Below are positions 46-64,000 of a stretch of 64,000 bases of DNA, piece by piece. Below the pieces are notes generated by a model. It searched no databases. It was not told where the DNA came from and saw only the letters and a program-made list of their open reading frames with translations. The translations under genes were made by a program, and so were the position numbers. Source of the stretch: Candidatus Liminaster caballi (GTDB lineage Bacteria; Bacteroidota; Bacteroidia; Bacteroidales; UBA3663); contig JAGHUA010000061.1 of NCBI GenBank assembly GCA_018065085.1, positions 8,991-72,990 on the forward strand, read 5' to 3'. How positions within the stretch are numbered: the stretch's first letter is position 1; every line of letters starts with the position of its first letter.

Positions 46-1302
46 ATGATCACCGATCTGATTGAAGAAATATACGTGTCGATGAGTCGCAACAAACTGC
101 GCATCGCTTTGACCGGATTCAGTATAGCATGGGGCATCTTTCTGCTCATTGTGCTGCTGGGTGCGGGCAATGGTCTTTTGCATGGCATGATGTCCAATTT
201 CTCTTCGCAGTCGGTCAATAAGATTCAGCTTTGGCCAGGCTATACATCGCTCGAAAAAGATGGACTGCCAAAGTGGCGAAACATCTATCTCGATGCCAAG
301 GATGTGGAGTATTTACATGGCGTTTTTCCTCGCGAGATTGCAGCTGTGCAGCCGTCGGTCAGCGTTGGTACTCAACTTGCCGTGGGCGACAATCATTCGT
401 CCGTGTCTCTTCAAGGTGTCTATCCTGAGGCGATAGCGATGAATGGCAACACCATCACCTATGGTCGCGGACTTAATGAGATGGATATCCGCGATCGTCG
501 CAAGGTGATCGTTCTCCATCAGAAGACCGCCGAAAAACTTTTCCTCGACGCTTCGCAGGCTGTCGGTCAGTGGGTCAAGGCCTATGATATCGAATACCGC
601 GTGGTCGGTGTGTATAAAGGAAAGAATGTGGCGCGCGAGGAACAGCCATACGTCCCTTTGACCACTGCCACATCAATCTACAAACCAGACGGACATTATT
701 CGAAGGTCACACTCCTGGTGCAGAATCTTGAGACAGCTGAGGCTAACGAGGATTTCAACAAAGCTCTTAAGGAAGTCATGTCGCACCATAAGCAATATGA
801 CCCAAATGATCCGAGTGCGCTTTGGTTGTGGAATTCTTACGAAGATTACCTTCAGACCCAGACTGCATTGAATGGCATTCAGTTCCTGATATGGATCATC
901 GGCATCGCCACACTTATTGCCGGTGTGACAGGCATCTCGAACATCATGCTCATCACAGTGCGCGAACGTACACATGAGTTCGGCATTCGCAAGGCCATCG
1001 GTGCTCGACCGATGGAGATAGTCCGTCTTGTTATCTTTGAGTCGATTGCCATCACCATGGTGTTTGGTTATGTGGGACTGTTCTTCGGCATCGGTCTGAC
1101 CGAGCTTGTCGGCATGATACTGTCGTTGGCAGATAACGGCAGTGAGGAAGGCTCATTCACAGTCTTCATGGATCCTACCGTCGATCTTAATATTGTTATT
1201 GCTGCCACCGTTGTGATGGTTATCGCCGGTGTTATTGCCGGTTATGTGCCCGCCAAACGTGCTGTCAGCATCAAACCAATCGAAGCACTCACAGCCTCAT
1301 AG
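46..1302 (+). CDS. ABC-type efflux permease, MacB/FtsX family (permease-only subunit)
   Basis: 418-aa ORF with an N-terminal TM helix, a large extracytoplasmic domain and C-terminal FtsX-type helices. Carries the motif ISNIMLITVRERTHEFGIRKAIGA typical of MacB/LolCE permeases. A paralogue follows 4 nt downstream. Confidence 0.85.
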   Translation: MITDLIEEIYVSMSRNKLRIALTGFSIAWGIFLLIVLLGAGNGLLHGMMSNFSSQSVNKIQLWPGYTSLEKDGLPKWRNIYLDAKDVEYLHGVFPREIAAVQPSVSVGTQLAVGDNHSSVSLQGVYPEAIAMNGNTITYGRGLNEMDIRDRRKVIVLHQKTAEKLFLDASQAVGQWVKAYDIEYRVVGVYKGKNVAREEQPYVPLTTATSIYKPDGHYSKVTLLVQNLETAEANEDFNKALKEVMSHHKQYDPNDPSALWLWNSYEDYLQTQTALNGIQFLIWIIGIATLIAGVTGISNIMLITVRERTHEFGIRKAIGARPMEIVRLVIFESIAITMVFGYVGLFFGIGLTELVGMILSLADNGSEEGSFTVFMDPTVDLNIVIAATVVMVIAGVIAGYVPAKRAVSIKPIEALTAS

Positions 1303-1305
1303 CCT

Positions 1306-2559
1306 ATGACTGAACTTTGGCAAGAGATATGGCAGACGATCAGGCGTAACAAATGGCGTTCGCTGATGACGGCATTCGGTGTCTTCTGGGGCATTCTGAT
1401 GCTGGTGGTGCTTGTTGGCCTTGGTCATGGTGTGTTCAATGGCATAGCCAGCTCGGTCAATAGCATACCGAGCAACAGTCTTATCCTCGGAGGCGGACAT
1501 ACATCAATGCCTTATAAGGGAATGGCCACAGACCGAAGCATCACGACCAAGAACGATGACATAGAAATGCTGCGCTCATTCCTTGGCGATAAAGCTAAAT
1601 ACATCATCCCGCAGAATGGAGCCGGCAGTATGACGGTCAATGTGGGTGAGAACAATATCAGCGCAGATGTTGTCGGTACAAATGCTGGGTATTATCATGT
1701 CATTCCGTCCGAGATGATTTACGGAAGATACATCAACGATGTTGATATTCATGAGCGACGCAAGGTCTGCGTCATCGGCATACGTGTCTATGAGACTCTT
1801 TTCCCGCAGGGTGGCGATCCGTGCGGAAAGCTCGTCAAGGTTGGCGAGATCTATTATACCGTGGTGGGTGTGGTCAGGAAACTTACCGGCATGATCAGTC
1901 TTGGAGAGGATGTCGATCAGTCGCTTGTCTTGCCTATCAATACTCTTCAGCTGTCGTATGGTCATGGCAGTAACGTCTATAGCATCATTGTCACGATGCA
2001 TGACCAATATGACGTCAAGGTGTGGGAGGACAGGATTCTTGCCGCCATGAAAGAGAAATATCTGGTTCATCCTGACGACAAATCAGCATTCTGGAGCTTC
2101 AATCTCTCGGAGATCATATCTATGTTCAATAACTTGTTCCTTGGCATCAACATCCTGCTGTGGATTGTCGGTTGCGGCAGTCTGTTTGCCGGACTTATCG
2201 GCATTTCGAACATCATGCTCGTGACCGTCAAGGAACGTACTCAGGAGATTGGCATACGTCGCGCTCTCGGTGCCAAGCCTAAGACCATTCTCACCCAGAT
2301 TCTGTGCGAGAGTCTTGTGCTGACCATTGCAGCAGGCATCACCGGTCTGGTGTTGGGAGTGTGGATTCTCAACGTGGTTGGCATCTTTGTCGATGTCTCG
2401 GCTGGCAGCAGCGATTTCCCGATGGCCAATCCGCAGATTGAGTTCTCGGTGGCAGTTTCGGCTCTCTTTGTCATCATCATTGGCGGACTTCTTGCGGGTT
2501 GGATGCCTGCCAAGAGGGCCATGATGATCAAGGCAATCGAAGCCTTGCGCGAAGAATAG
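1306..2559 (+). CDS. ABC-type efflux permease, MacB/FtsX family (second paralogue)
   Basis: 417-aa ORF with the same architecture. Motif ISNIMLVTVKERTQEIGIRRALGA. Tightly packed in the operon. Confidence 0.85.
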   Translation: MTELWQEIWQTIRRNKWRSLMTAFGVFWGILMLVVLVGLGHGVFNGIASSVNSIPSNSLILGGGHTSMPYKGMATDRSITTKNDDIEMLRSFLGDKAKYIIPQNGAGSMTVNVGENNISADVVGTNAGYYHVIPSEMIYGRYINDVDIHERRKVCVIGIRVYETLFPQGGDPCGKLVKVGEIYYTVVGVVRKLTGMISLGEDVDQSLVLPINTLQLSYGHGSNVYSIIVTMHDQYDVKVWEDRILAAMKEKYLVHPDDKSAFWSFNLSEIISMFNNLFLGINILLWIVGCGSLFAGLIGISNIMLVTVKERTQEIGIRRALGAKPKTILTQILCESLVLTIAAGITGLVLGVWILNVVGIFVDVSAGSSDFPMANPQIEFSVAVSALFVIIIGGLLAGWMPAKRAMMIKAIEALREE

Positions 2560-2602
2560 ACACTCCCCAATTTGAAACTAATAAACTCCATAATATAAAA
2601 AT

Positions 2603-3712
2603 ATGAAGAAGCTAATAAAGATTGTTCTATGGTGCGTTGCAGGCCTGTTTGTGGTCTATACCTTCTTTTTCCTTTATCAGAAGTCACAGCCGGAGGTTGT
2701 GGAGTACGAACTGCTACAGCCGGAGGTGCGCGACATCCTCAAGACCTCGGTGGCAAGCGGTAGGGTAGAACCACGCGATGAGGTGAATGTCAAGCCGCAG
2801 ATCCAGGGCATCATCACCGAACTCTATGTTGAAGCCGGTGACCGTGTGAAGGTTGGCGACCCATTGGCAAAGGTATCGGTTATTCCTGACATGTCGCAGC
2901 TTGCCAATGCCCAGAGTCAGGTACGCACCACACAGCTCACTCTCGAAGAGACCGAACGCGAGTACGCGCGTATCGAGACGCTTTATCAGAAAGGTGTGGC
3001 GTCTAAGGAAGAGTATGAGCAGGCTCAGAACAATCTGCATAAGGTGAGGGAACAGGCACAGAGTGCACAGGACGCATTGGACATCGTCACCGACGGCATC
3101 AGCAAGCGTGCCGGAAAGATCAATACCACCATCGTGCGCAGCACCATCACCGGCACTATCCTCGACGTCCCCGTTAAGATCGGTACATCTGTCATCAACG
3201 CAAACTCGTTCAACGAAGGTACAACGGTTGCTGTCGTAGCCGATATGAGTGACATCATCTTCCGTGGCAATATCGACGAGACGGAGGTCGGTCGTCTTCA
3301 TACGGGCATGAACATCAATCTGACAATCGGTGCCATTCAGGGAATCCGGCTTCCTGCCGTTCTTGAATATATTTCTCCTAAGGGCACATCAAGCAATGGC
3401 GCTATCATGTTCGAGATCAAGGCTGCAGCGCAGATTCCTGACACCATTACCGTACGTGCAGGCTATAGTGCCAATGCCGAGATCCTTCTTGCCGAACGTC
3501 ATCAGGTGATGGCTGTGCCTGAGAGCGCCATCGAGTTCTCGCACGATTCCACATTCGTTTACAGTCTTACCTCTGAGCCCGGTGTCTTGCCACAGACTTT
3601 CGATCGTATTCCTGCCAATGTCGGCATGAGCGACGGTCTTTACATCGAGATTTTGGATGGTGTCTCGGAGGGCATGAACCTGCGAGGCAATCTTAAGACA
3701 GAAAAAGATTAA
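2603..3712 (+). CDS. Efflux periplasmic adaptor (membrane-fusion protein, HlyD/MacA type)
   Basis: 369 aa with an N-terminal membrane anchor and a coiled-coil hairpin (QLTLEETEREYARIETLYQKGVASKEEYEQAQ) flanked by barrel-sandwich-like segments. Sits between the permeases and the TolC-like gene. Confidence 0.85.
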   Translation: MKKLIKIVLWCVAGLFVVYTFFFLYQKSQPEVVEYELLQPEVRDILKTSVASGRVEPRDEVNVKPQIQGIITELYVEAGDRVKVGDPLAKVSVIPDMSQLANAQSQVRTTQLTLEETEREYARIETLYQKGVASKEEYEQAQNNLHKVREQAQSAQDALDIVTDGISKRAGKINTTIVRSTITGTILDVPVKIGTSVINANSFNEGTTVAVVADMSDIIFRGNIDETEVGRLHTGMNINLTIGAIQGIRLPAVLEYISPKGTSSNGAIMFEIKAAAQIPDTITVRAGYSANAEILLAERHQVMAVPESAIEFSHDSTFVYSLTSEPGVLPQTFDRIPANVGMSDGLYIEILDGVSEGMNLRGNLKTEKD

Positions 3713-3715
3713 GCC

Positions 3716-5032
3716 ATGAGAACATTAGCTATATCTTTAGTTTCTTTGCTTTGCGTATTTTCTGTCAATGCCCAGACGATGAGCCTCGACGATTGCATCA
3801 AATATGCACTTGAGCATAATACCAATATTCAACAGCGTCAGCTGGCTGAAGAGAACCAGCGCATCTCGCTCGACAATACGCGCAAGTCTCGTCTCCCAAG
3901 TCTTGATGCATCTTTGGGACAGGGTTGGGGTTTCGGTCGAAGCACCGGACGTGACGGTTCTACAATCGACCGCACTTCGTCCAACACCAGTTTCTCAATC
4001 GGAACATCAGTCCCGCTGTTTACAGGTTTCCGTATTCCTAATCAGATTAAGTCCGAACAGTATTCGTTGAAGGCTGCATCTGAGAACCTGCGCCTGGCCC
4101 GCCGCAATGTGAGCGTACAGGTCGTTACATATTACCTCAATGCTCTCTATTACCGTGGTTTGGTCGATGTGCAGCGTCGGCAGGTAGAACTTGATCGTGC
4201 CGCGCTCGATAAGGCACGCAGCCTTTATGAAGCCGGCAAGCGTCCGCAGTCGGAGGTAGTGTCTGCCGAGGCTCAGGTAGCGCTTTCCGAACACAGCCTC
4301 ACCGAAGCCGCAGGCAATGAGATGCTTGCTCGCCTTGACCTTATGCAGATGCTCAATCTTGAGGGCGATGTGCGTCAGTTTAATATCGTCAGCATTGATA
4401 CCACCGCAGCCTCTGTCACGTCGGCAGGTTCTTTGTCTCAGCCGGATATAGTCTTTGAACAGGCTGTGGCAAACTATCCGTCGATCCTTGCAGCTCAGTA
4501 TAATCTCGAAAGCAGTCGCTATCAGCTCAAGTCGGCTCGCAGCGGCTATCTGCCAAAGTTGTCGCTCAATGCACAGTATAGCAATAGCTACAACTATATA
4601 TATAACATGCAGAATATGAGTTTCAGCAAGCAGCTCGATCTCAACGGCAGCGAATATGTTGGTCTTTCGCTCAGCATCCCGATTTTCGACCGTTTCCAGA
4701 CGCGCAACAGTCTTCGTCAGGCACGTCTGAATATCGAGAGCCAGAACACATCGCTTGTCGAGGCACGTCAGTCGCTCTTCAAGGAGATTCAGCAGGCTTA
4801 TTGGAATGCCCAAAAGGCTCGCGACAACTTTGCGTCGGCTCAGAAAGCCAATGCTTCGACTTCGCTTGCCTATCAGTATGAGGCTGATCGTTATGAAGCA
4901 GGAAAAGGCACGGCTTACGACCTTCAGCAGGCTCGTACTCGCATGGAGAAAGCCGCTTACGATGAGCTACAGGCCAAATTTGAATATTTCATGCGCATCA
5001 AAGTCCTTGAGTCATATCTTCAGGAAGAATAA
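3716..5032 (+). CDS. TolC-family outer-membrane efflux protein
   Basis: 438 aa with a signal peptide (...CVFSVNAQ) and the two-repeat OEP/TolC-like helical/beta pattern. Starts 4 nt after the adaptor gene. Confidence 0.85.
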   Translation: MRTLAISLVSLLCVFSVNAQTMSLDDCIKYALEHNTNIQQRQLAEENQRISLDNTRKSRLPSLDASLGQGWGFGRSTGRDGSTIDRTSSNTSFSIGTSVPLFTGFRIPNQIKSEQYSLKAASENLRLARRNVSVQVVTYYLNALYYRGLVDVQRRQVELDRAALDKARSLYEAGKRPQSEVVSAEAQVALSEHSLTEAAGNEMLARLDLMQMLNLEGDVRQFNIVSIDTTAASVTSAGSLSQPDIVFEQAVANYPSILAAQYNLESSRYQLKSARSGYLPKLSLNAQYSNSYNYIYNMQNMSFSKQLDLNGSEYVGLSLSIPIFDRFQTRNSLRQARLNIESQNTSLVEARQSLFKEIQQAYWNAQKARDNFASAQKANASTSLAYQYEADRYEAGKGTAYDLQQARTRMEKAAYDELQAKFEYFMRIKVLESYLQEE

Positions 5033-5071: not shown

Positions 5072-6490
5072 ATGTCTCTTAGCCCTGAACAGATAGCCAA
5101 GATACGCCAGAAAGAAGCAAAAACGCCCGATGCCCTGAAGCGTAATCCCCTCAATGATTACACTGAGGGTTGGTTTCATGTGACGCTCAACGTGCGTGGC
5201 GAAGCACCTGTGCTGGGGTATATCGTTGGCGATGCCGAAGCCCCGGGAGGCAGCGAAAATGCGCCGCGCTGCATCTTGACGGAGCTGGGAAAGAGGGTGG
5301 AGGAGAGCTGGAAAAGCAATCCTTCGTTCTATCCGGGCATCGAGAATATTGAATTCCAAATAATGCCCGATCATGTGCATGGATTGGTACATTTAAAATC
5401 TGAGAACCAAAAGCATCTTGGACAAATTGTTTATGGATTCATGGTTGGATGTACTCACGCATATTGGGACACGCTGGGCATACCTTGGCGTGAGATGACA
5501 TATGAGAAAGGCGCACGTGCGCCGCAATGGCAGGATCGTGATCACACGCGATCTTTCCGTGGGCCTGCGCTTTTTGTGCGTGGCTATAATGATGTGGAGG
5601 CTATTGGCGAGGAAGAGATAGAGATTAAGCGGCAATATATTCGCAATAATCCGCGCAAGAGGTTGATAACACGCTCCAAACCGGATTGCTTCCGAATCCA
5701 TCGCAATATGAAGAGCGCCAATTGGACGCCAGAGCGCATCATGAAAGGACTATGCGCAGACCGTTATATTGCGGCAGACTGTAACAAGCAGGTGGAGGCA
5801 TGGCAGCAAGTGACGGTGAAAGGGATTAGGAACAACCGAGGCAAGGTGAGCGCAACGCTTAATATGCAAACACAAACAAATACTCCGCCAGAATGTGCGG
5901 CAGTTAATGCTTGCACGGCTGTTGGCTATTTAGCTCATGCCCAAGTTCTCGGCAATCATGTTCTCAGTCATCAAGTATCCATCCGCCCTGTCATCGACCT
6001 TGTGGGCAATATGGATTTACTCCAGCGACCACTGTTTCCACTCGTCTGCCATAGAGCCGATGCGCATCTGTTCGAACAACAGAAAGCGGCAGTGCTGAAG
6101 GTGGCAAGGGAACAGGGTGGAGTGATAGTCACAGCGTGCGTAAGCCCTAAGGAAAGAGCCATTGTGAAACTGTTGCAACAGGAACTTCTGCCTGTTATCG
6201 AAGTGATGGACAACGGTTTCAGTGATAAATACAAGCCGACAGGCAAGAACTTCTATGCCGTGGCAGAACAGCGACGGTTGGAGGTTTCTCCTTGGCAATA
6301 CGAATACCGGCAGCGAGAATGGCGACCGGTTAAGGACGGACATTGCAACCCTGTTCTTGATGCCAACGGTAACCTCGAGATGGAAGAAATACCAGACATC
6401 ACGCGTGAGATGTGCATGGTTATGAATGAACTGGTGCGCATGATTGCGAAAAAAACAGATGACTGGTGGAAACTCACAGACCCCATGTGA
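5072..6490 (+). CDS. RAYT-like (IS200-like Y1/HUH) domain protein with a ~265-aa uncharacterised C-terminal extension
   Basis: 472 aa. N-terminal ~205 aa carry GWFHVTLNVRGEAPVLG, the HUH motif IMPDHVHGLVHL and the catalytic-Tyr helix IKRQYIRNNPRKRL (YIxxNP as in REP-associated tyrosine transposases). I cannot assign the C-terminal part. No flanking hairpins and no tnpB. Confidence 0.6.
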   Translation: MSLSPEQIAKIRQKEAKTPDALKRNPLNDYTEGWFHVTLNVRGEAPVLGYIVGDAEAPGGSENAPRCILTELGKRVEESWKSNPSFYPGIENIEFQIMPDHVHGLVHLKSENQKHLGQIVYGFMVGCTHAYWDTLGIPWREMTYEKGARAPQWQDRDHTRSFRGPALFVRGYNDVEAIGEEEIEIKRQYIRNNPRKRLITRSKPDCFRIHRNMKSANWTPERIMKGLCADRYIAADCNKQVEAWQQVTVKGIRNNRGKVSATLNMQTQTNTPPECAAVNACTAVGYLAHAQVLGNHVLSHQVSIRPVIDLVGNMDLLQRPLFPLVCHRADAHLFEQQKAAVLKVAREQGGVIVTACVSPKERAIVKLLQQELLPVIEVMDNGFSDKYKPTGKNFYAVAEQRRLEVSPWQYEYRQREWRPVKDGHCNPVLDANGNLEMEEIPDITREMCMVMNELVRMIAKKTDDWWKLTDPM

Positions 6491-8474
6491 GACTTGTGAC
6501 GCGGAATGCGGTGCGGCGGTTGATCTGATCGACTATGGCACGCTGGTCATTGCTCAGCGAGTTGGCGTATTCTTCATCGAGAACCTGACCGATCGGCAGG
6601 AAATCATATTTAAGCGACAATTTTTCATCCACAACAACCGGCTCGGACTTGCCATAGCCAACAGGTTCGAGTCGGCCTTCGTCAATGCCCTGACTGACAA
6701 GATAATCGCATACCGATTGGGCACGGCGCTGCGAGAGATCGAGATTATAGGCCTGTGAACCGACACGGTCGGTATGAGCCGAGAGTTCGATGGTGCAATA
6801 AGGATTGTCGTTGAGCATCTGCACAAGATCGTCGAGCGAAGGATAAGATTCTTCGCGCAGGGTAGCTTGATTATAGTCGTAGAAGATATTGTCAACGAGA
6901 ATCGGCTCGGTTATGGACGGCAGGATAAAATCCACCTGATATTCGGCGTCTTCCTCTTCTGGGTCGGATGTGAACTGAGCCTTACGGTTGAGATAGCCTT
7001 GTTTGCCCGACATCATAACATATTCCGTCGAACGGTCGATATTGACTTCATAGGTGCCGTCGGGTTTGGTCACCGACTTAAAGTTCATTCCGTTGCGACC
7101 CACAACACGCACTATGGCTTCGGCAATAGGTTCGTCTTCAGTGTCGAACACCGTACCGGTAATCTTGACGGTGATTGACGGCAGCAGGAAACTGTATATA
7201 TTGTCATAACCCTTGCCCTGATTGCGGTTCGAGCTGAACCATCCTTCCTGTTTGGCTGTGGTCTTGTGCATGAATGTCATGCCGAAATCATCGCCAGCCG
7301 AGTTGATTGGCACACCGAGATGTTCGACGTGCCAAGTGTCCCAATCGTCAAGTCGTGCGCTATATATGTCAAGGCCGCCAAGACCTTCGCGACCGTTGCT
7401 CGAAAAATAGAGCAGACCGTCGGGCGAGAATGTAGGGAACATCTCGTCGCCAGGAGTGTTGATAGCTTCTCCGAGATTCTCAGGCACGCCTGGTTCGCCC
7501 GATTCCATCGAACATCGCCAGATGTCAAGACCACCAAGACCTCCCATCATGTCGCTGACAAAATACAGATAGCGGCCGTCAGGCGTGATGGCCGGGTGGG
7601 CGATTGTTGACAGAGTGTCACCCATGATCTTGAGCATAGTGCCCTTGCTCCACGAAGCGTCAGAACGTCGAGAGACGTAGATCTGCGGCGATGCCGGCAT
7701 ACCGTCGCCACCGCCGGCACATGTGTAGTACATTGTCTGTCCGTCGGTCGAGAAATAAGGCGTTCCTTCGTCATACTTAGTGCTGACCTCGCCTGCCGAT
7801 TCGGGTTTCAGCCATCGACCCTTGTCGTCCTTGCGCGTCACCCAGATATCGCAATATTTCGTGCCTGTGATGTTGCTCGTCTCGTCGCCTTCCACCTTGT
7901 CGTTGCTTGTGGTGAAATACAGTTCATCATCTTCCTCGCCCCAGATGGCAGGACTGAACTCTGCCCTTCGCGAGTTGATCAATGCAAATCGTTTGACCTC
8001 ATAGCGGCTGCCGTCCAGTTTCCATTGCGCAGCCTGGGCCGCACCCTCAAGACCGGCCTTTGCCTCATCATCGTCGGGCAGGATTTCGAGTTGCATCTGA
8101 TAGTATTTGATAGCCTCCTTGTACTTGCCGGCATGATGGTGAGCCTTGGCGATGCGCAGCAGAAGTGTCGGGTCTTCATAGCCGTAGCGCTGTGCATTGA
8201 GATATGATGCGGAAGCCTGAGCCGGAATCATGAGTTTGTCATAGCAAACACCCATGTGCCATGCCACCTCGGCACGTTTCTCGCGGTCGGTGCGGGCGTT
8301 GGTCTTTCGATAAACCTGCTTTAGTGTCTGCGATGCCTTGTAGTATTCTCCACGTTCAATCTCCTGCAGTGCGGTGCTGAGCTTTGCCGTCTGACATGAT
8401 GCCAGACAACATACCATAATGAGGGTCAGAAGTGGGGAAATGCTTATTTTCATCATATAAAAAACGTCCGACAT
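6474..8474 (-). CDS. OmpA-family lipoprotein with TPR, TolB-like (PD40) beta-propeller and C-terminal OmpA peptidoglycan-binding domain
   Basis: 666 aa with a lipoprotein-like signal (LIMVCCLASCQ). The start may be the Met at 8456 or 8453. Contains TPR-like helices, repeated PD40-type motifs (SPDG..LYF.S, GG.DI) and an OmpA_C signature (IELSAHTDRVGSQAYNLDLSQRRAQSV). Confidence 0.85.
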   Translation of the reverse strand: MSDVFYMMKISISPLLTLIMVCCLASCQTAKLSTALQEIERGEYYKASQTLKQVYRKTNARTDREKRAEVAWHMGVCYDKLMIPAQASASYLNAQRYGYEDPTLLLRIAKAHHHAGKYKEAIKYYQMQLEILPDDDEAKAGLEGAAQAAQWKLDGSRYEVKRFALINSRRAEFSPAIWGEEDDELYFTTSNDKVEGDETSNITGTKYCDIWVTRKDDKGRWLKPESAGEVSTKYDEGTPYFSTDGQTMYYTCAGGGDGMPASPQIYVSRRSDASWSKGTMLKIMGDTLSTIAHPAITPDGRYLYFVSDMMGGLGGLDIWRCSMESGEPGVPENLGEAINTPGDEMFPTFSPDGLLYFSSNGREGLGGLDIYSARLDDWDTWHVEHLGVPINSAGDDFGMTFMHKTTAKQEGWFSSNRNQGKGYDNIYSFLLPSITVKITGTVFDTEDEPIAEAIVRVVGRNGMNFKSVTKPDGTYEVNIDRSTEYVMMSGKQGYLNRKAQFTSDPEEEDAEYQVDFILPSITEPILVDNIFYDYNQATLREESYPSLDDLVQMLNDNPYCTIELSAHTDRVGSQAYNLDLSQRRAQSVCDYLVSQGIDEGRLEPVGYGKSEPVVVDEKLSLKYDFLPIGQVLDEEYANSLSNDQRAIVDQINRRTAFRVTSLTWGL

Positions 8475-14193: not shown

Positions 14194-14231
14194 TTTGAAC
14201 GCAAAAAAAAGTCGCGTTTATAAAAAGTCAT

Positions 14232-14239
14232 TATATTTG
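14232..14239 (+). promoter_or_regulatory. Bacteroidetes -7 promoter box (TATATTTG)
   Basis: Matches TAnnTTTG about 70 nt upstream of the ATG at 14310. Confidence 0.45.
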
Positions 14240-14309
14240 CTGCATAAATCTCACGATTTTACCAATGATAATATATCGTTAACATTAACCATTTAAAACA
14301 GTTAACCAA

Positions 14310-15797
14310 ATGATTAATCAACCAACAGTGAAGCTTGGTATCGTAGGCGTTAGCCGCGACTGCTTCCCCGTAACTCTTACACAGGCTCGTCTTGCTGCTG
14401 TCATGGCAGAGGTTAAGGCAGCCGGTCTTCCAGAAGTTTATGATTGTCCTGTAACAATCGAGAACGATGTTGACACCTACAAGGCTCTCGATTGGGCTAA
14501 GGAGAATGGCATCAACGCAGTATGTATGTTCCTCGGCAACTTTGGTCCTGAAGGTCCAACCACATTGTTCTGCCAGAAGTTCGGCGGTCCATGCATGGTA
14601 CTCGCAGCCAAGGAGGAAGGCAAGGCTAATCTTGCTTCTGACCGTGGTGACGCTCTTTGCGGTGTGCTCAACTTCTCTTACTCAGTTGGTCTCCGTCGTC
14701 TCAAGGTATATATCCCAGAGTATCCAAACGTAAACCCACAGGAGGCTGTCAAGGAACTCGCTGACTTCCGCAACATCGCTCGCGTTGTTATCGGCGTTCG
14801 CAACCTCAAGGTTATCGGCTTTGGTCCACGTCCATGGGACTTCCTCGCTTGCAACGCACCTATCCAGCCAATGTATGACCTCGGCATCGAGGTTCAGGAG
14901 AACTCTGAGCTCGACCTCAAGAAGGCATTCGACGAGATTCTCGCTAAGCCAGGCAAGGCTGCTGAGGTAGCTGCTGTCGCTAAGGATATGGAGACAGAAC
15001 TCGGTCCTTCGCGCAACACATATCCTGAGATCATCAACAAGATGGCTCAGCTTGAGGTTACCCTCCTCGATTGGTACGAGAACCAGAAGGGTGGCTCTAA
15101 GTATGCTGTATTCGCTAACAAGTGCTGGCCAGCATGGCAGCCAATCTTCGAGTTCGAGCCTTGCTACGTTAACTCACGTCTCACAGGCCGTGGCATTCCT
15201 GTAGCTTGTGAGGTTGACCTCTACGGTGCTCTCTCTGAGTTCATGGCTGAGTGCGCTACTGAGAAGCCTGCAACTCTCCTCGACATCAACAACTCTGTTC
15301 CTGCTGACGTTATCCCAGCCGGTGCAAATCTTGCTGGCGCCGATCTCAAGGATCTCTACATGGGCTTCCACTGCGGTAACACATGCTCACAGTGCATGAA
15401 GGACTGCAAGATCAAGTATCAGCTCATCCAGGCTCGTCTCATGAGCGAGGATATCACCAAGGGTACTCTCGAAGGTCAGATTGCTCCAGGCAAGTCAACA
15501 ATGTTCCGCATCCAGTCTAACTCTGACGCTAAGCTCGTTTCTTACATCGCTCAGGGTGAGTTCCTCGATGTTGCTCCATGCTCATTCGGTGGCATCGGTA
15601 TCCACGCTATCCCAGGCTTCGCACGTTTCTATCGTCACGTCCTCGTTGGCAAGCGTTTCCCTCACCACGGAGCATACGCTTTCGAGCACTGCGGCAAGGT
15701 TCTCTTCGAGGCTCTCAAGATGCTCGGCGTTGAGGATATCAATACTCCACTCCCAGCAGGTCAGCTCTATCCAGGCGAGAACCCATTCGCTATCTGA
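14310..15797 (+). CDS. L-fucose/L-arabinose isomerase family protein (COG2407-like sugar isomerase)
   Basis: 495 aa. KLGIVGVSRDCFP, FLGNFGPEG and ACEVDLYGAL segments resemble FucI-family isomerases. Strong codon bias similar to the PFOR gene. Lies next to the GH95 fucosidase. Confidence 0.6.
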   Translation: MINQPTVKLGIVGVSRDCFPVTLTQARLAAVMAEVKAAGLPEVYDCPVTIENDVDTYKALDWAKENGINAVCMFLGNFGPEGPTTLFCQKFGGPCMVLAAKEEGKANLASDRGDALCGVLNFSYSVGLRRLKVYIPEYPNVNPQEAVKELADFRNIARVVIGVRNLKVIGFGPRPWDFLACNAPIQPMYDLGIEVQENSELDLKKAFDEILAKPGKAAEVAAVAKDMETELGPSRNTYPEIINKMAQLEVTLLDWYENQKGGSKYAVFANKCWPAWQPIFEFEPCYVNSRLTGRGIPVACEVDLYGALSEFMAECATEKPATLLDINNSVPADVIPAGANLAGADLKDLYMGFHCGNTCSQCMKDCKIKYQLIQARLMSEDITKGTLEGQIAPGKSTMFRIQSNSDAKLVSYIAQGEFLDVAPCSFGGIGIHAIPGFARFYRHVLVGKRFPHHGAYAFEHCGKVLFEALKMLGVEDINTPLPAGQLYPGENPFAI

Positions 15798-16167: not shown

Positions 16168-16503
16168 GAAAGTTTCATTTGGATTTCCCAAGTCTTCGGA
16201 AATGCCGCAGAAAGTTTCATTTGGATTTCCCGAGTCTTCGGAAGTGCCGCCGAAAGTTTCTTTGGGATTTCCCAACTCTTAGGAAATGCCGCAGAAAGTT
16301 TCTTTAGGATTTCCCGAGTCTTAGGAAATGCCGCCGAAATTTTCATTTGGATTTCCCGAGTCTTAGGAACTGCTGGCGAAAGTTTCATTTGGATTTCCCG
16401 AGTCTTAGGAAATGCTGGCGAAAGTTTCATTTGGATTTCCCAACTCTTAGGAAATGCCGCCGAAAGTTTCTTTGGGATTTCCCAGCTTTCTGGAAACGCT
16501 CTT
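16168..16503. repeat. Tandem array, 8 units of exactly 42 bp (family A)
   Basis: Units start at 16168, 16210, 16252, 16294, 16336, 16378, 16420 and 16462. Consensus GAAAGTTTCATTTGGATTTCCCRAGTCTTMGGAAATGCCGCM. No spacers and no indels. Confidence 0.95.
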
Positions 16504-34754: not shown

Positions 34755-34760
34755 CCTGTT

Positions 34761-35121
34761 TTGGTTACATCTAAGAGTTGGGAACTAACCAAAAAAAGTC
34801 TGGCGGTTAGATTTAAGACTTGGGAACTAACCAAAATAATGTTTTTGGTTAGAACTAAGAGTTGGGAACTAACCAAAATAATGTTCTTGGTTAGAGTTAA
34901 GAGTTGGGAACTAACCAAAATGGTGTGCTTTGGTTAGAACTAAGAGTTGGGAACTAACCAAAATAATGTTTTCGGTTAGAACTAAGAGTTGGGAACTAAC
35001 CAAAATAATGTTCTTGGTTAGAACTAAGAGTTGGGAACTAACCAAAATAATGTTTTCGGTTAGAACTAAGACTTGGGAACTAACCAAAATAATGTTCTTG
35101 GTTAGAACTAAGAGTTGGGAA
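34761..35121. repeat. Tandem array, 8.5 units of 42 bp (family B), each unit hairpin-forming
   Basis: Units start at 34761, 34803, 34845, 34887 (43 nt), 34930, 34972, 35014, 35056 and 35098 (truncated). Consensus TTGGTTAGAACTAAGAGTTGGGAACTAACCAAAATAATGTTC with the inverted repeat TTGGTTAG/CTAACCAA. Confidence 0.95.
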
Positions 35122-63899: not shown

Positions 63900-63908
63900 A
63901 ATTATTGC

Positions 63909-64000
63909 AAAACTTTCATTTGGACTTCCCAGGTCTTAGGAAATGCTAACAAAAGTTTCGTTTGGACTTCCCAAGTGTTCGGAAATGCTGCCGAAAGTTT
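63909..64000. repeat. Tandem 42-bp array, family A, second locus (truncated by the window end)
   Basis: Units run 63909-63950, 63951-63992, and from 63993 onward. Sequence AAAACTTTCATTTGGACTTCCCAGGTCTTAGGAAATGCTAAC / AAAAGTTTCGTTTGGACTTCCCAAGTGTTCGGAAATGCTGCC / GAAAGTTT..., in the same orientation as 16168-16503. Confidence 0.9.

Follow-up and report, generated by a model that had tools for sequence, protein, structure and literature searches.

We examined a window of 64,000 nucleotides (nt) from Candidatus Liminaster caballi (contig JAGHUA010000061.1 of assembly GCA_018065085.1, positions 8,991 to 72,990), by which we mean the whole stretch of DNA that was analysed, and in it the open reading frame (ORF) that follows a string of efflux genes. 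The 472-residue product of this ORF, P0001, is an intact member of a large, undescribed family of Prevotella-like gut and rumen Bacteroidales in which a Y1 HUH domain is joined to a DprA-like domain, an arrangement that is new within the HUH Y1 superfamily. Judging from sequence and structure model, P0001 most likely processes single-stranded DNA (ssDNA). Our overall assessment is that the gene is probably a free-standing accessory cassette encoding such an ssDNA-processing fusion protein, with an incidental position behind the efflux genes and no reliable tie to the 42-bp repeat arrays of the window. The source genome of the window (G000) is represented by an assembly of 2.94 Mb, and the genomes compared are mostly incomplete metagenome-assembled genomes (MAGs). 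Residue conservation was read from alignments of 18 and 60 sequences and from 49 distant members that are 25-35% identical to the window protein. A family profile built from 49 sequences was used against PDB, and an AlphaFold2 model of P0001 was built from 60 homologues and then searched with Foldseek.

By profile and predicted fold, the N-terminal part of P0001 is a divergent Y1 HUH domain resembling the tyrosine transposases associated with repetitive extragenic palindromes (REPs), that is, a RAYT-like domain (class-2 TnpA-Y1). The preliminary description had placed the first ~205 residues in the Y1/HUH superfamily, and this assignment is borne out by sub-threshold matches to curated models, including Pfam Y1_Tnp (PF01797) matches in 17 of 49 family members, by a match of the family profile to ISDra2 TnpA, in which MPDH101VH103 aligns with the HUH strand of the latter, and by the fold. 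The model is confident (mean predicted local distance difference test score, pLDDT, 87; predicted template-modelling score, pTM, 0.84), and its N-terminal domain retrieved 2xma, 2xm3, 2vjv, 2ec2 and 4er8 from PDB with Foldseek probability 1.00 and target template-modelling (TM) scores of 0.58-0.68. The catalytic residues align as had been proposed: the predicted metal-binding pair H101 and H103 and the predicted nucleophile Y189 are invariant, Y189 being the same in 60 sequences, conserved to at least 90% in the distant members, and located on helix 180-202 of the model. In a published motif table of TnpA-Y1 classes, class 2 (RAYT-like) has YIxxNP and IS200 TnpA has Y...Q (PMC6006769); the YIRNNP of P0001 is nearer the former, and the description of the domain as RAYT-like therefore stands.

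The remaining ~265 residues, formerly described as an unknown module, resolve into three parts (Table 1): a linker that varies among members, a trimmed Rossmann domain of the DprA type and a terminal helix that is conserved. Profile and model comparisons agree in identifying the central part as a shortened DprA-like Rossmann domain. The family profile matched Streptococcus pneumoniae DprA (3uqz) at E=5e-4 over 95 aligned residues, with GN..LL aligned to GN..LL, VVGSR to LVCHR and IAVIGTGLDVFYP to IEVMDNGFSDKYKP, and the C-terminal domain of the model matched the DprA structures 3maj, 4ljk and 3uqz with Foldseek probabilities of 0.97-0.99, as well as ShosA (8zva). In Helicobacter pylori DprA, the arginine of the G-S/T/A-R motif gates the ssDNA pocket (PMC3950713); its equivalent in P0001, R328, is kept in the local sequence C-H-R and conserved to at least 90% in the distant members. 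The domain has ~115 residues versus ~205 in DprA, so that roughly half is missing, and the Pfam DprA model (PF02481) did not match P0001 and matched one of 49 members (E=0.001).

Table 1. Features of the P0001 gene and its surroundings (positions in the window; aa, amino acids)
Feature	Position	Strand	Basis
Whole ORF, Y1-HUH/DprA-like fusion protein P0001, 472 aa	5072..6490	+	584 full-length homologues; dN/dS
Conserved N-terminal helix, aa 1-30, M.LTPEQIAKIRQKEA.TPDALKRNPL	5072..5161	+	Alignments; helix 5-17 in model
Predicted Y1 HUH nuclease core, aa 31-205, with family-specific conserved loop aa 136-165	5162..5686	+	Pfam, NCBIfam, profile, Foldseek
HUH motif H101-V-H103	5372..5380	+	H101 and H103 invariant in 18- and 60-sequence alignments, at least 90% in 49 distant members
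Putative catalytic-Tyr motif Y189-I-R-N-N-P, class-2/RAYT-type YIxxNP	5636..5653	+	Y189 invariant; N193 and P194 at least 90% in distant members
Linker, aa 206-300, ending in hypervariable low-complexity insert aa ~271-300, pLDDT <50	5687..5971	+	Alignments, model; duplications/inserts in other members
Trimmed DprA-like Rossmann domain (predicted), aa 301-416: GN..LL, C326-H-R328, VSPKER	5972..6319	+	Profile against PDB, Foldseek
Variable stretch, aa 417-440			
Conserved C-terminal helix and DDWWK motif, aa 441-467; R445, C448, N452 invariant	6392..6472	+	Alignments, model
Context only: two MacB-like, HlyD-family and OEP/TolC-like efflux genes upstream; no conserved partner	46..5032	+	Domain matches; congener comparison
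Context only: convergent PD40/CarboxypepD_reg/OmpA gene, 17-nt 3' overlap with the ORF	6474..8474	-	Domain matches

The variable regions carry some observations of their own. The orthologue in G007 (547 residues; L073/L204, G007:C31, 4887-5038) has a 48-bp intragenic tandem repeat in the linker (3.2 copies, 98% identical) and a second duplication near its C-terminus, and in other members low-complexity inserts occupy both of these sites (residues ~270-300 and ~417-440 of the window protein). Within the linker, positions 5774-5812 of the window (residues 235-247) keep synonymous codons unusually often among 10 orthologues (0.77-0.80 versus 0.52 overall, from few pairs), and it is this stretch that is tandemly duplicated in the G007 orthologue.

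The fusion is not the one-off that it had appeared to be but the fixed two-domain architecture of a large family. A word-indexed search returned 584 full-length relatives, and an exhaustive search returned 1,448 cluster representatives (clusters of 50% identity, E<=1e-3), most of which match in both domains. Current annotation misses the family, since it falls outside the models of Pfam, NCBIfam, PADLOC and PHROG and the only name on the family records seen was "hypothetical protein". The named records belong to Prevotella, Prevotellaceae/Bacteroidaceae, Paludibacteraceae and other Bacteroidales from the gut of horses, ruminants and humans; the cultured Prevotella merdae Marseille-P4119 is among them. 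Within the genus the family is present in 24 of 39 genomes, with up to ~14 matches per genome, and in the same order it is present in six of 291 high-quality genomes; to explain where it is present, a nifJ tree of the genus requires six changes among 24 genomes. The source genome itself has three two-domain paralogs of 25-43% identity. Searches of phage, plasmid and IMG/VR collections yielded no copies, and no description of a Y1-DprA fusion was found in the literature. The contig that carries one member (L250, 40% identity) belongs to a MAG with the label Oscillospiraceae (Firmicutes), which may be a binning error or a cross-phylum transfer. The ratio of nonsynonymous to synonymous substitution rates (dN/dS) is 0.07-0.12 against six orthologues, with synonymous sites near saturation, and the P0001 gene is under strong purifying selection.

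The ORF is open over 472 codons and contains the peptides quoted in the preliminary description (IMPDHVHGLVHL and IKRQYIRNNPRKRL). It starts, as reported there, 39 nt after the TolC-like gene (OEP/TolC-family ORF 3716..5032, same strand), which is the last member of a MacB-MacB-HlyD-OEP string, and its last 17 nt (6474-6490) overlap the 3' end of the convergent OmpA-like gene. The gene had been described as apparently domesticated at the end of an efflux operon, a view that comparison with relatives does not sustain. In 19 other genomes of the genus the orthologous hlyD-tolC pair is not followed by the gene, and relatives have tolC and the OmpA gene on separate contigs rather than side by side; the location after the efflux genes is thus peculiar to this species. 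When the gene neighbourhood of the orthologues was examined, six orthologue contigs showed six different neighbourhoods, and nucleotide homology to same-genus orthologues (71-77% identity) runs from the start codon to just before the stop. A partnership with the efflux operon was accordingly rejected; the gene has other neighbours in almost all species, which makes its link to efflux incidental.

A wider survey of context covered 80 family loci from species-representative genomes, with 1.09 Mb of flanking sequence. In 52 of 70 loci the upstream neighbour has the same orientation as the family gene, compared with 37 of 76 for the downstream neighbour, which suggests that the family gene tends to end a gene string. 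No neighbour family occurs in more than nine of the 80 loci. About 12 of them (~15%) lie in restriction cassettes composed of a Dcm/C5-cytosine methylase gene, often McrB-like AAA_5 and DUF2357/PDDEXK_7 genes, the family gene and often Vsr, and genes typical of mobile DNA in Bacteroidales (Bro-N/ANT, DUF3987 or HU-HIG) are present at other loci. At one locus (L208, 417-2616) an array of clustered regularly interspaced short palindromic repeats (CRISPR; 32-nt repeat GTCGCCCCTCACGTAGGGGCGTGGATTGAAAC, period 65-67) lies upstream of the family gene, with 750 nt between the two, probably by coincidence.

Evidence that the gene may move as a single-gene cassette comes from the restriction cassettes. 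At L235, the McrB-like and McrC-like genes are 6 nt apart and a family copy of its own follows McrC, whereas at L218 the family gene sits between homologues of the same two genes (76-82% nucleotide identity). The insert consists of a 102-nt leader, the ORF and 14 nt. On either side of it stands an imperfect copy of 17 nt of the junction (TAAAAACGCATGGATCT to the left, TAGTAACGCATGGAGCT to the right), which L235 has only once, as TAATAACGAATGGAACT. In the subgroup linked to restriction-modification (R-M) genes (L203, L212, L218, L227, L233, L235 and L244), the 70 nt before the start codon hold a module made up of a near-palindrome (TATTGCAATA-like) and a promoter of Bacteroidetes type, with a TTG at -33 and a TAnnTTTG box at -7 that lies ~23 nt before the ATG. 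This module is absent from the window copy, which is presumably read through from tolC. An empty site for the window copy was not found, as tolC and the OmpA gene are on separate contigs in relatives and the other neighbours differ, and a metagenome scan with TolC as query found no relatives. For the paralog on contig C83 of the source genome, an empty site was likewise not found, only the downstream carbonic-anhydrase gene being conserved.

These data raise the possibility, which we consider unlikely, that the family represents a new type of self-mobilising element made up of a single gene: a promoter-bearing cassette, encoding a Y1 HUH nuclease fused to a DprA-like domain for ssDNA binding or RecA loading, that would be excised or copied as ssDNA and would integrate at operon junctions and gene ends, often inside R-M cassettes, with imperfect target duplications of variable length. 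To our knowledge, such self-mobilising behaviour is not known for IS200/IS605 elements or RAYTs.

The same R-M contexts could also point to a different role, in which P0001 would be a host-beneficial defence or R-M accessory factor acting on incoming or damaged ssDNA (from conjugation, transformation, ssDNA phages or restriction breaks), with the DprA-like domain capturing ssDNA or recruiting RecA. The ~15% of loci inside Dcm/McrBC-like/Vsr operons are consistent with this role, but most loci, including that of the window, lie outside defence contexts, and the position of the gene shifts among similar R-M cassettes (L218 versus L235 versus L202), so that it looks like an inserted passenger rather than a fixed subunit. 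The fold resembles that of ShosA, the DprA-like component of the ShosTA defence system, yet no PADLOC model matched the three paralogs of the source genome at E<=1. The patchy distribution (six changes on the 24-genome tree), the many divergent paralogs per genome and the hypervariable linkers would also fit a defence function, whereas HUH enzymes, being site-specific and stoichiometric, are poor general nucleases. On balance we find a defence or R-M function rather improbable and retain the accessory cassette as the preferred explanation.

The 42-bp arrays of the window were considered next to the gene because RAYTs are associated with REPs. The three arrays noted in the preliminary description are real (16168-16483, 34757-35121 and 63908-64000), the nearest being 9.7 kb from the gene, but the relationship suggested there between gene and repeats is not upheld. 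Under that proposal, P0001 would have a RAYT-type function, seeding, spreading or maintaining species-specific 42-bp hairpin-bearing arrays as a Bacteroidales counterpart of the REP/RAYT system, which we regard as very unlikely. The source genome, with its three paralogs, has 119 tandem arrays of 25-80-bp period, many of them at contig ends; 71 are of exactly 42 bp, and 64 are non-coding with a period of 40-44 bp, an abundance that is in keeping with such a function. Its repeat family A comprises at least 173 units in ~50 arrays, and family B ~25 units. Against the proposal, a search of 36 other genomes of the genus did not find repeat A in any, though four of them have orthologues (51-77% identity); the other species of the genus have 41-43-bp arrays of their own with species-specific sequences. 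A TTCCGAA-like core recurs among the arrays of several species.

Co-occurrence was clean in a first sample, in which 14 family-positive genomes (1.13 Mb) gave 12 non-coding arrays of 40-44-bp period and 10 family-negative ones (0.74 Mb) gave none, a result that favoured the link. Deeper sampling broke this pattern, as non-coding 42-bp arrays turned up in two family-negative genomes, two in 142 kb of G004 and three in 104 kb of G018; these genomes are family-negative by single-sequence and profile search, and as MAGs of 86% and 78% completeness they do not prove absence of the gene. Tree-based sister-pair contrasts of array against family were not significant (p ~0.5) and were underpowered. Around the 80 family genes we found only four arrays of 38-46-bp period, with no enrichment near the gene and no distance decay, and the window gene has no repeat within 4 kb. 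The two other paralogs of the source genome are closer to an array than the window gene (0.53 kb from a B-type array for C83 and 2.7 kb for C4), which would speak for the link, but the proximity of the three is within chance (combined p ~0.09, estimated from array density). The remains of a family gene abutting an array in G014 also point in its favour.

Two of these loci deserve description. At L002 (G000:C83; 778-861, 911-1384, 1429-2682), a small ORF of HTH_18 (AraC) type and family-B 42-bp units lie in front of the C83 paralog; congeners lack this whole block, which is located upstream of a carbonic-anhydrase-like gene that they conserve. At L103 (G014:C31, ~14213-14311), only a 3'-terminal piece of the gene (encoding ...DITREMCMVMNELVRMIAKKPDNWW) survives, which matches the G003 orthologue over 59 nt at 93% nucleotide identity and lies ~110 nt from a 43-bp tandem array (14400-14680).

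Within 4 kb on either side of the ORF there is no repeated DNA with a match elsewhere in the 2.94-Mb assembly, flanking direct or inverted repeats do not exceed chance 11-nt matches, and Rfam has no match within the window. Both ORF ends, treated as ssDNA, fold no better than shuffled sequence (z ~0), and no hidden DNA elements were seen in them, synonymous-site conservation being flat at ~0.5. The earlier conclusion that the gene is not an IS200/IS605 element is confirmed by the lack of subterminal hairpins, by TolC and OmpA genes as neighbours and by paralogs that, at only 25-43% identity, are not near-identical copies.

A decaying transposase remnant with no current function would also lack element ends and a promoter module of its own, as the window copy does, and the overlap of its 3' end with the neighbouring gene could be taken in the same sense. 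The ORF is nevertheless full-length, all family-invariant residues are present, dN/dS is ~0.1 and the structure model is confident, all of which makes an inactive relic highly improbable.

The explanation that we prefer, an ssDNA-processing Y1-HUH/DprA-like fusion carried as an accessory cassette, has several points weighing against it. P0001 itself scores below the curated cut-offs, with 20.3 bits (E=6e-4) against the Pfam Y1_Tnp gathering threshold of 23 bits and 19.8 bits (E=5.5e-4, residues 95-197) against the equivalog cut-off of 80 bits of NCBIfam REP_Tyr_transpos (NF047646). The second ssDNA motif of DprA, F/L/Y-x-x-R-N/D on helix alpha-6, was not found, the DprA alignment stopping before that helix, and ssDNA binding by the DprA-like domain can thus only be presumed. 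No recognition hairpin or cleavage site for P0001 was identified. As to movement, Y1 (IS200-type) transposition normally proceeds without target duplication, so the 17-nt duplication at L218 does not fit simple HUH transposition. L218/L235 is the only clean filled/empty pair; in the comparison of L229 with L220, the insert ends with a second copy of a neighbouring terminator hairpin, which is not a simple duplication. Synteny in the genus is generally poor, and variable context alone is consequently weak evidence of mobility.

If this explanation is right, P0001 would act on ssDNA, with the DprA-like domain holding the strand and probably providing a dimer contact, while the Y1 domain would nick and rejoin a specific site through a 5'-phosphotyrosine link at Tyr189. 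The gene would live as a free-standing accessory cassette. Only in this species would it have come to lie behind the MacAB-TolC string, its own promoter module being lost or lacking there; in other species it often lies within 5-methylcytosine R-M operons.

Comparison with known systems sets the family apart from each of them. With the RAYT/TnpA-REP proteins (E. coli YafM, PDB 4ER8; class 2 TnpA-Y1, PMC6006769), P0001 shares the Y1 HUH fold, the HUH motif and the single tyrosine in a YIxxNP helix, as well as a chromosomal gene without insertion-sequence ends or tnpB, low copy number and divergent paralogs. Unlike them, the window gene has no flanking REPs (no REPtron) and none were seen near 80 relatives, the NCBIfam score is far under the equivalog cut-off, the class-2 W motif is replaced by LF..GYND, the conserved loop of residues 136-165 is extra, ~265 additional residues include the DprA-like domain, and the host belongs to the Bacteroidales. 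TnpA-Y1 subclasses without REPs, for example 2.1 and 2.3 (PMC6006769), are similar in combining a Y1 core with a large, subclass-specific conserved C-terminal domain, but they have median lengths of 148-325 residues, are mostly proteobacterial, and none is described with a DprA-like domain (PMC6006769). The IS200/IS605 TnpA proteins (ISDra2, IS608; 2XMA, 2XM3, 2VJV) are the top structural matches of the N-terminal domain (Foldseek E ~7e-5, target TM 0.60-0.68), whereas the tyrosine motif of P0001 is Y...N-P rather than Y...Q, the protein is ~3x longer and the window gene is without subterminal hairpins, tnpB or multicopy identical elements. With DprA/Smf (PF02481; 3UQZ, 4LJK, 3MAJ) and ShosA (8ZVA), P0001 shares the Rossmann core, the GN..LL lead-in and the G(L/F)d..Y(K)P segment, and it keeps the arginine of the ssDNA-pocket strand-loop in a motif that reads C-H-R instead of the G-S/T/A-R of DprA. 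It differs from DprA in the reduced size of the domain, in the second ssDNA motif that was not found, in the replacement of the GxGID loop by SPKE(R/K), in having neither SAM nor winged-helix domains, and in its fusion to a predicted nuclease.

HUH Y1 enzymes have two known roles, as IS200/IS605 transposases and as REP-associated domesticated transposases. A large and strongly conserved family in dominant gut and rumen Bacteroidales, namely Prevotella and its allies, that combines HUH chemistry with a DprA-type ssDNA-binding module would add a third lifestyle to the superfamily, and would point to an unstudied ssDNA transaction, be it that of a minimal mobile element, of a passenger or helper of R-M cassettes, or of a recombination factor. 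HUH-tag enzymes with a built-in ssDNA-binding domain would also be of practical interest for the covalent coupling of DNA and protein. A family model together with one biochemical test would change the annotation of thousands of genes.

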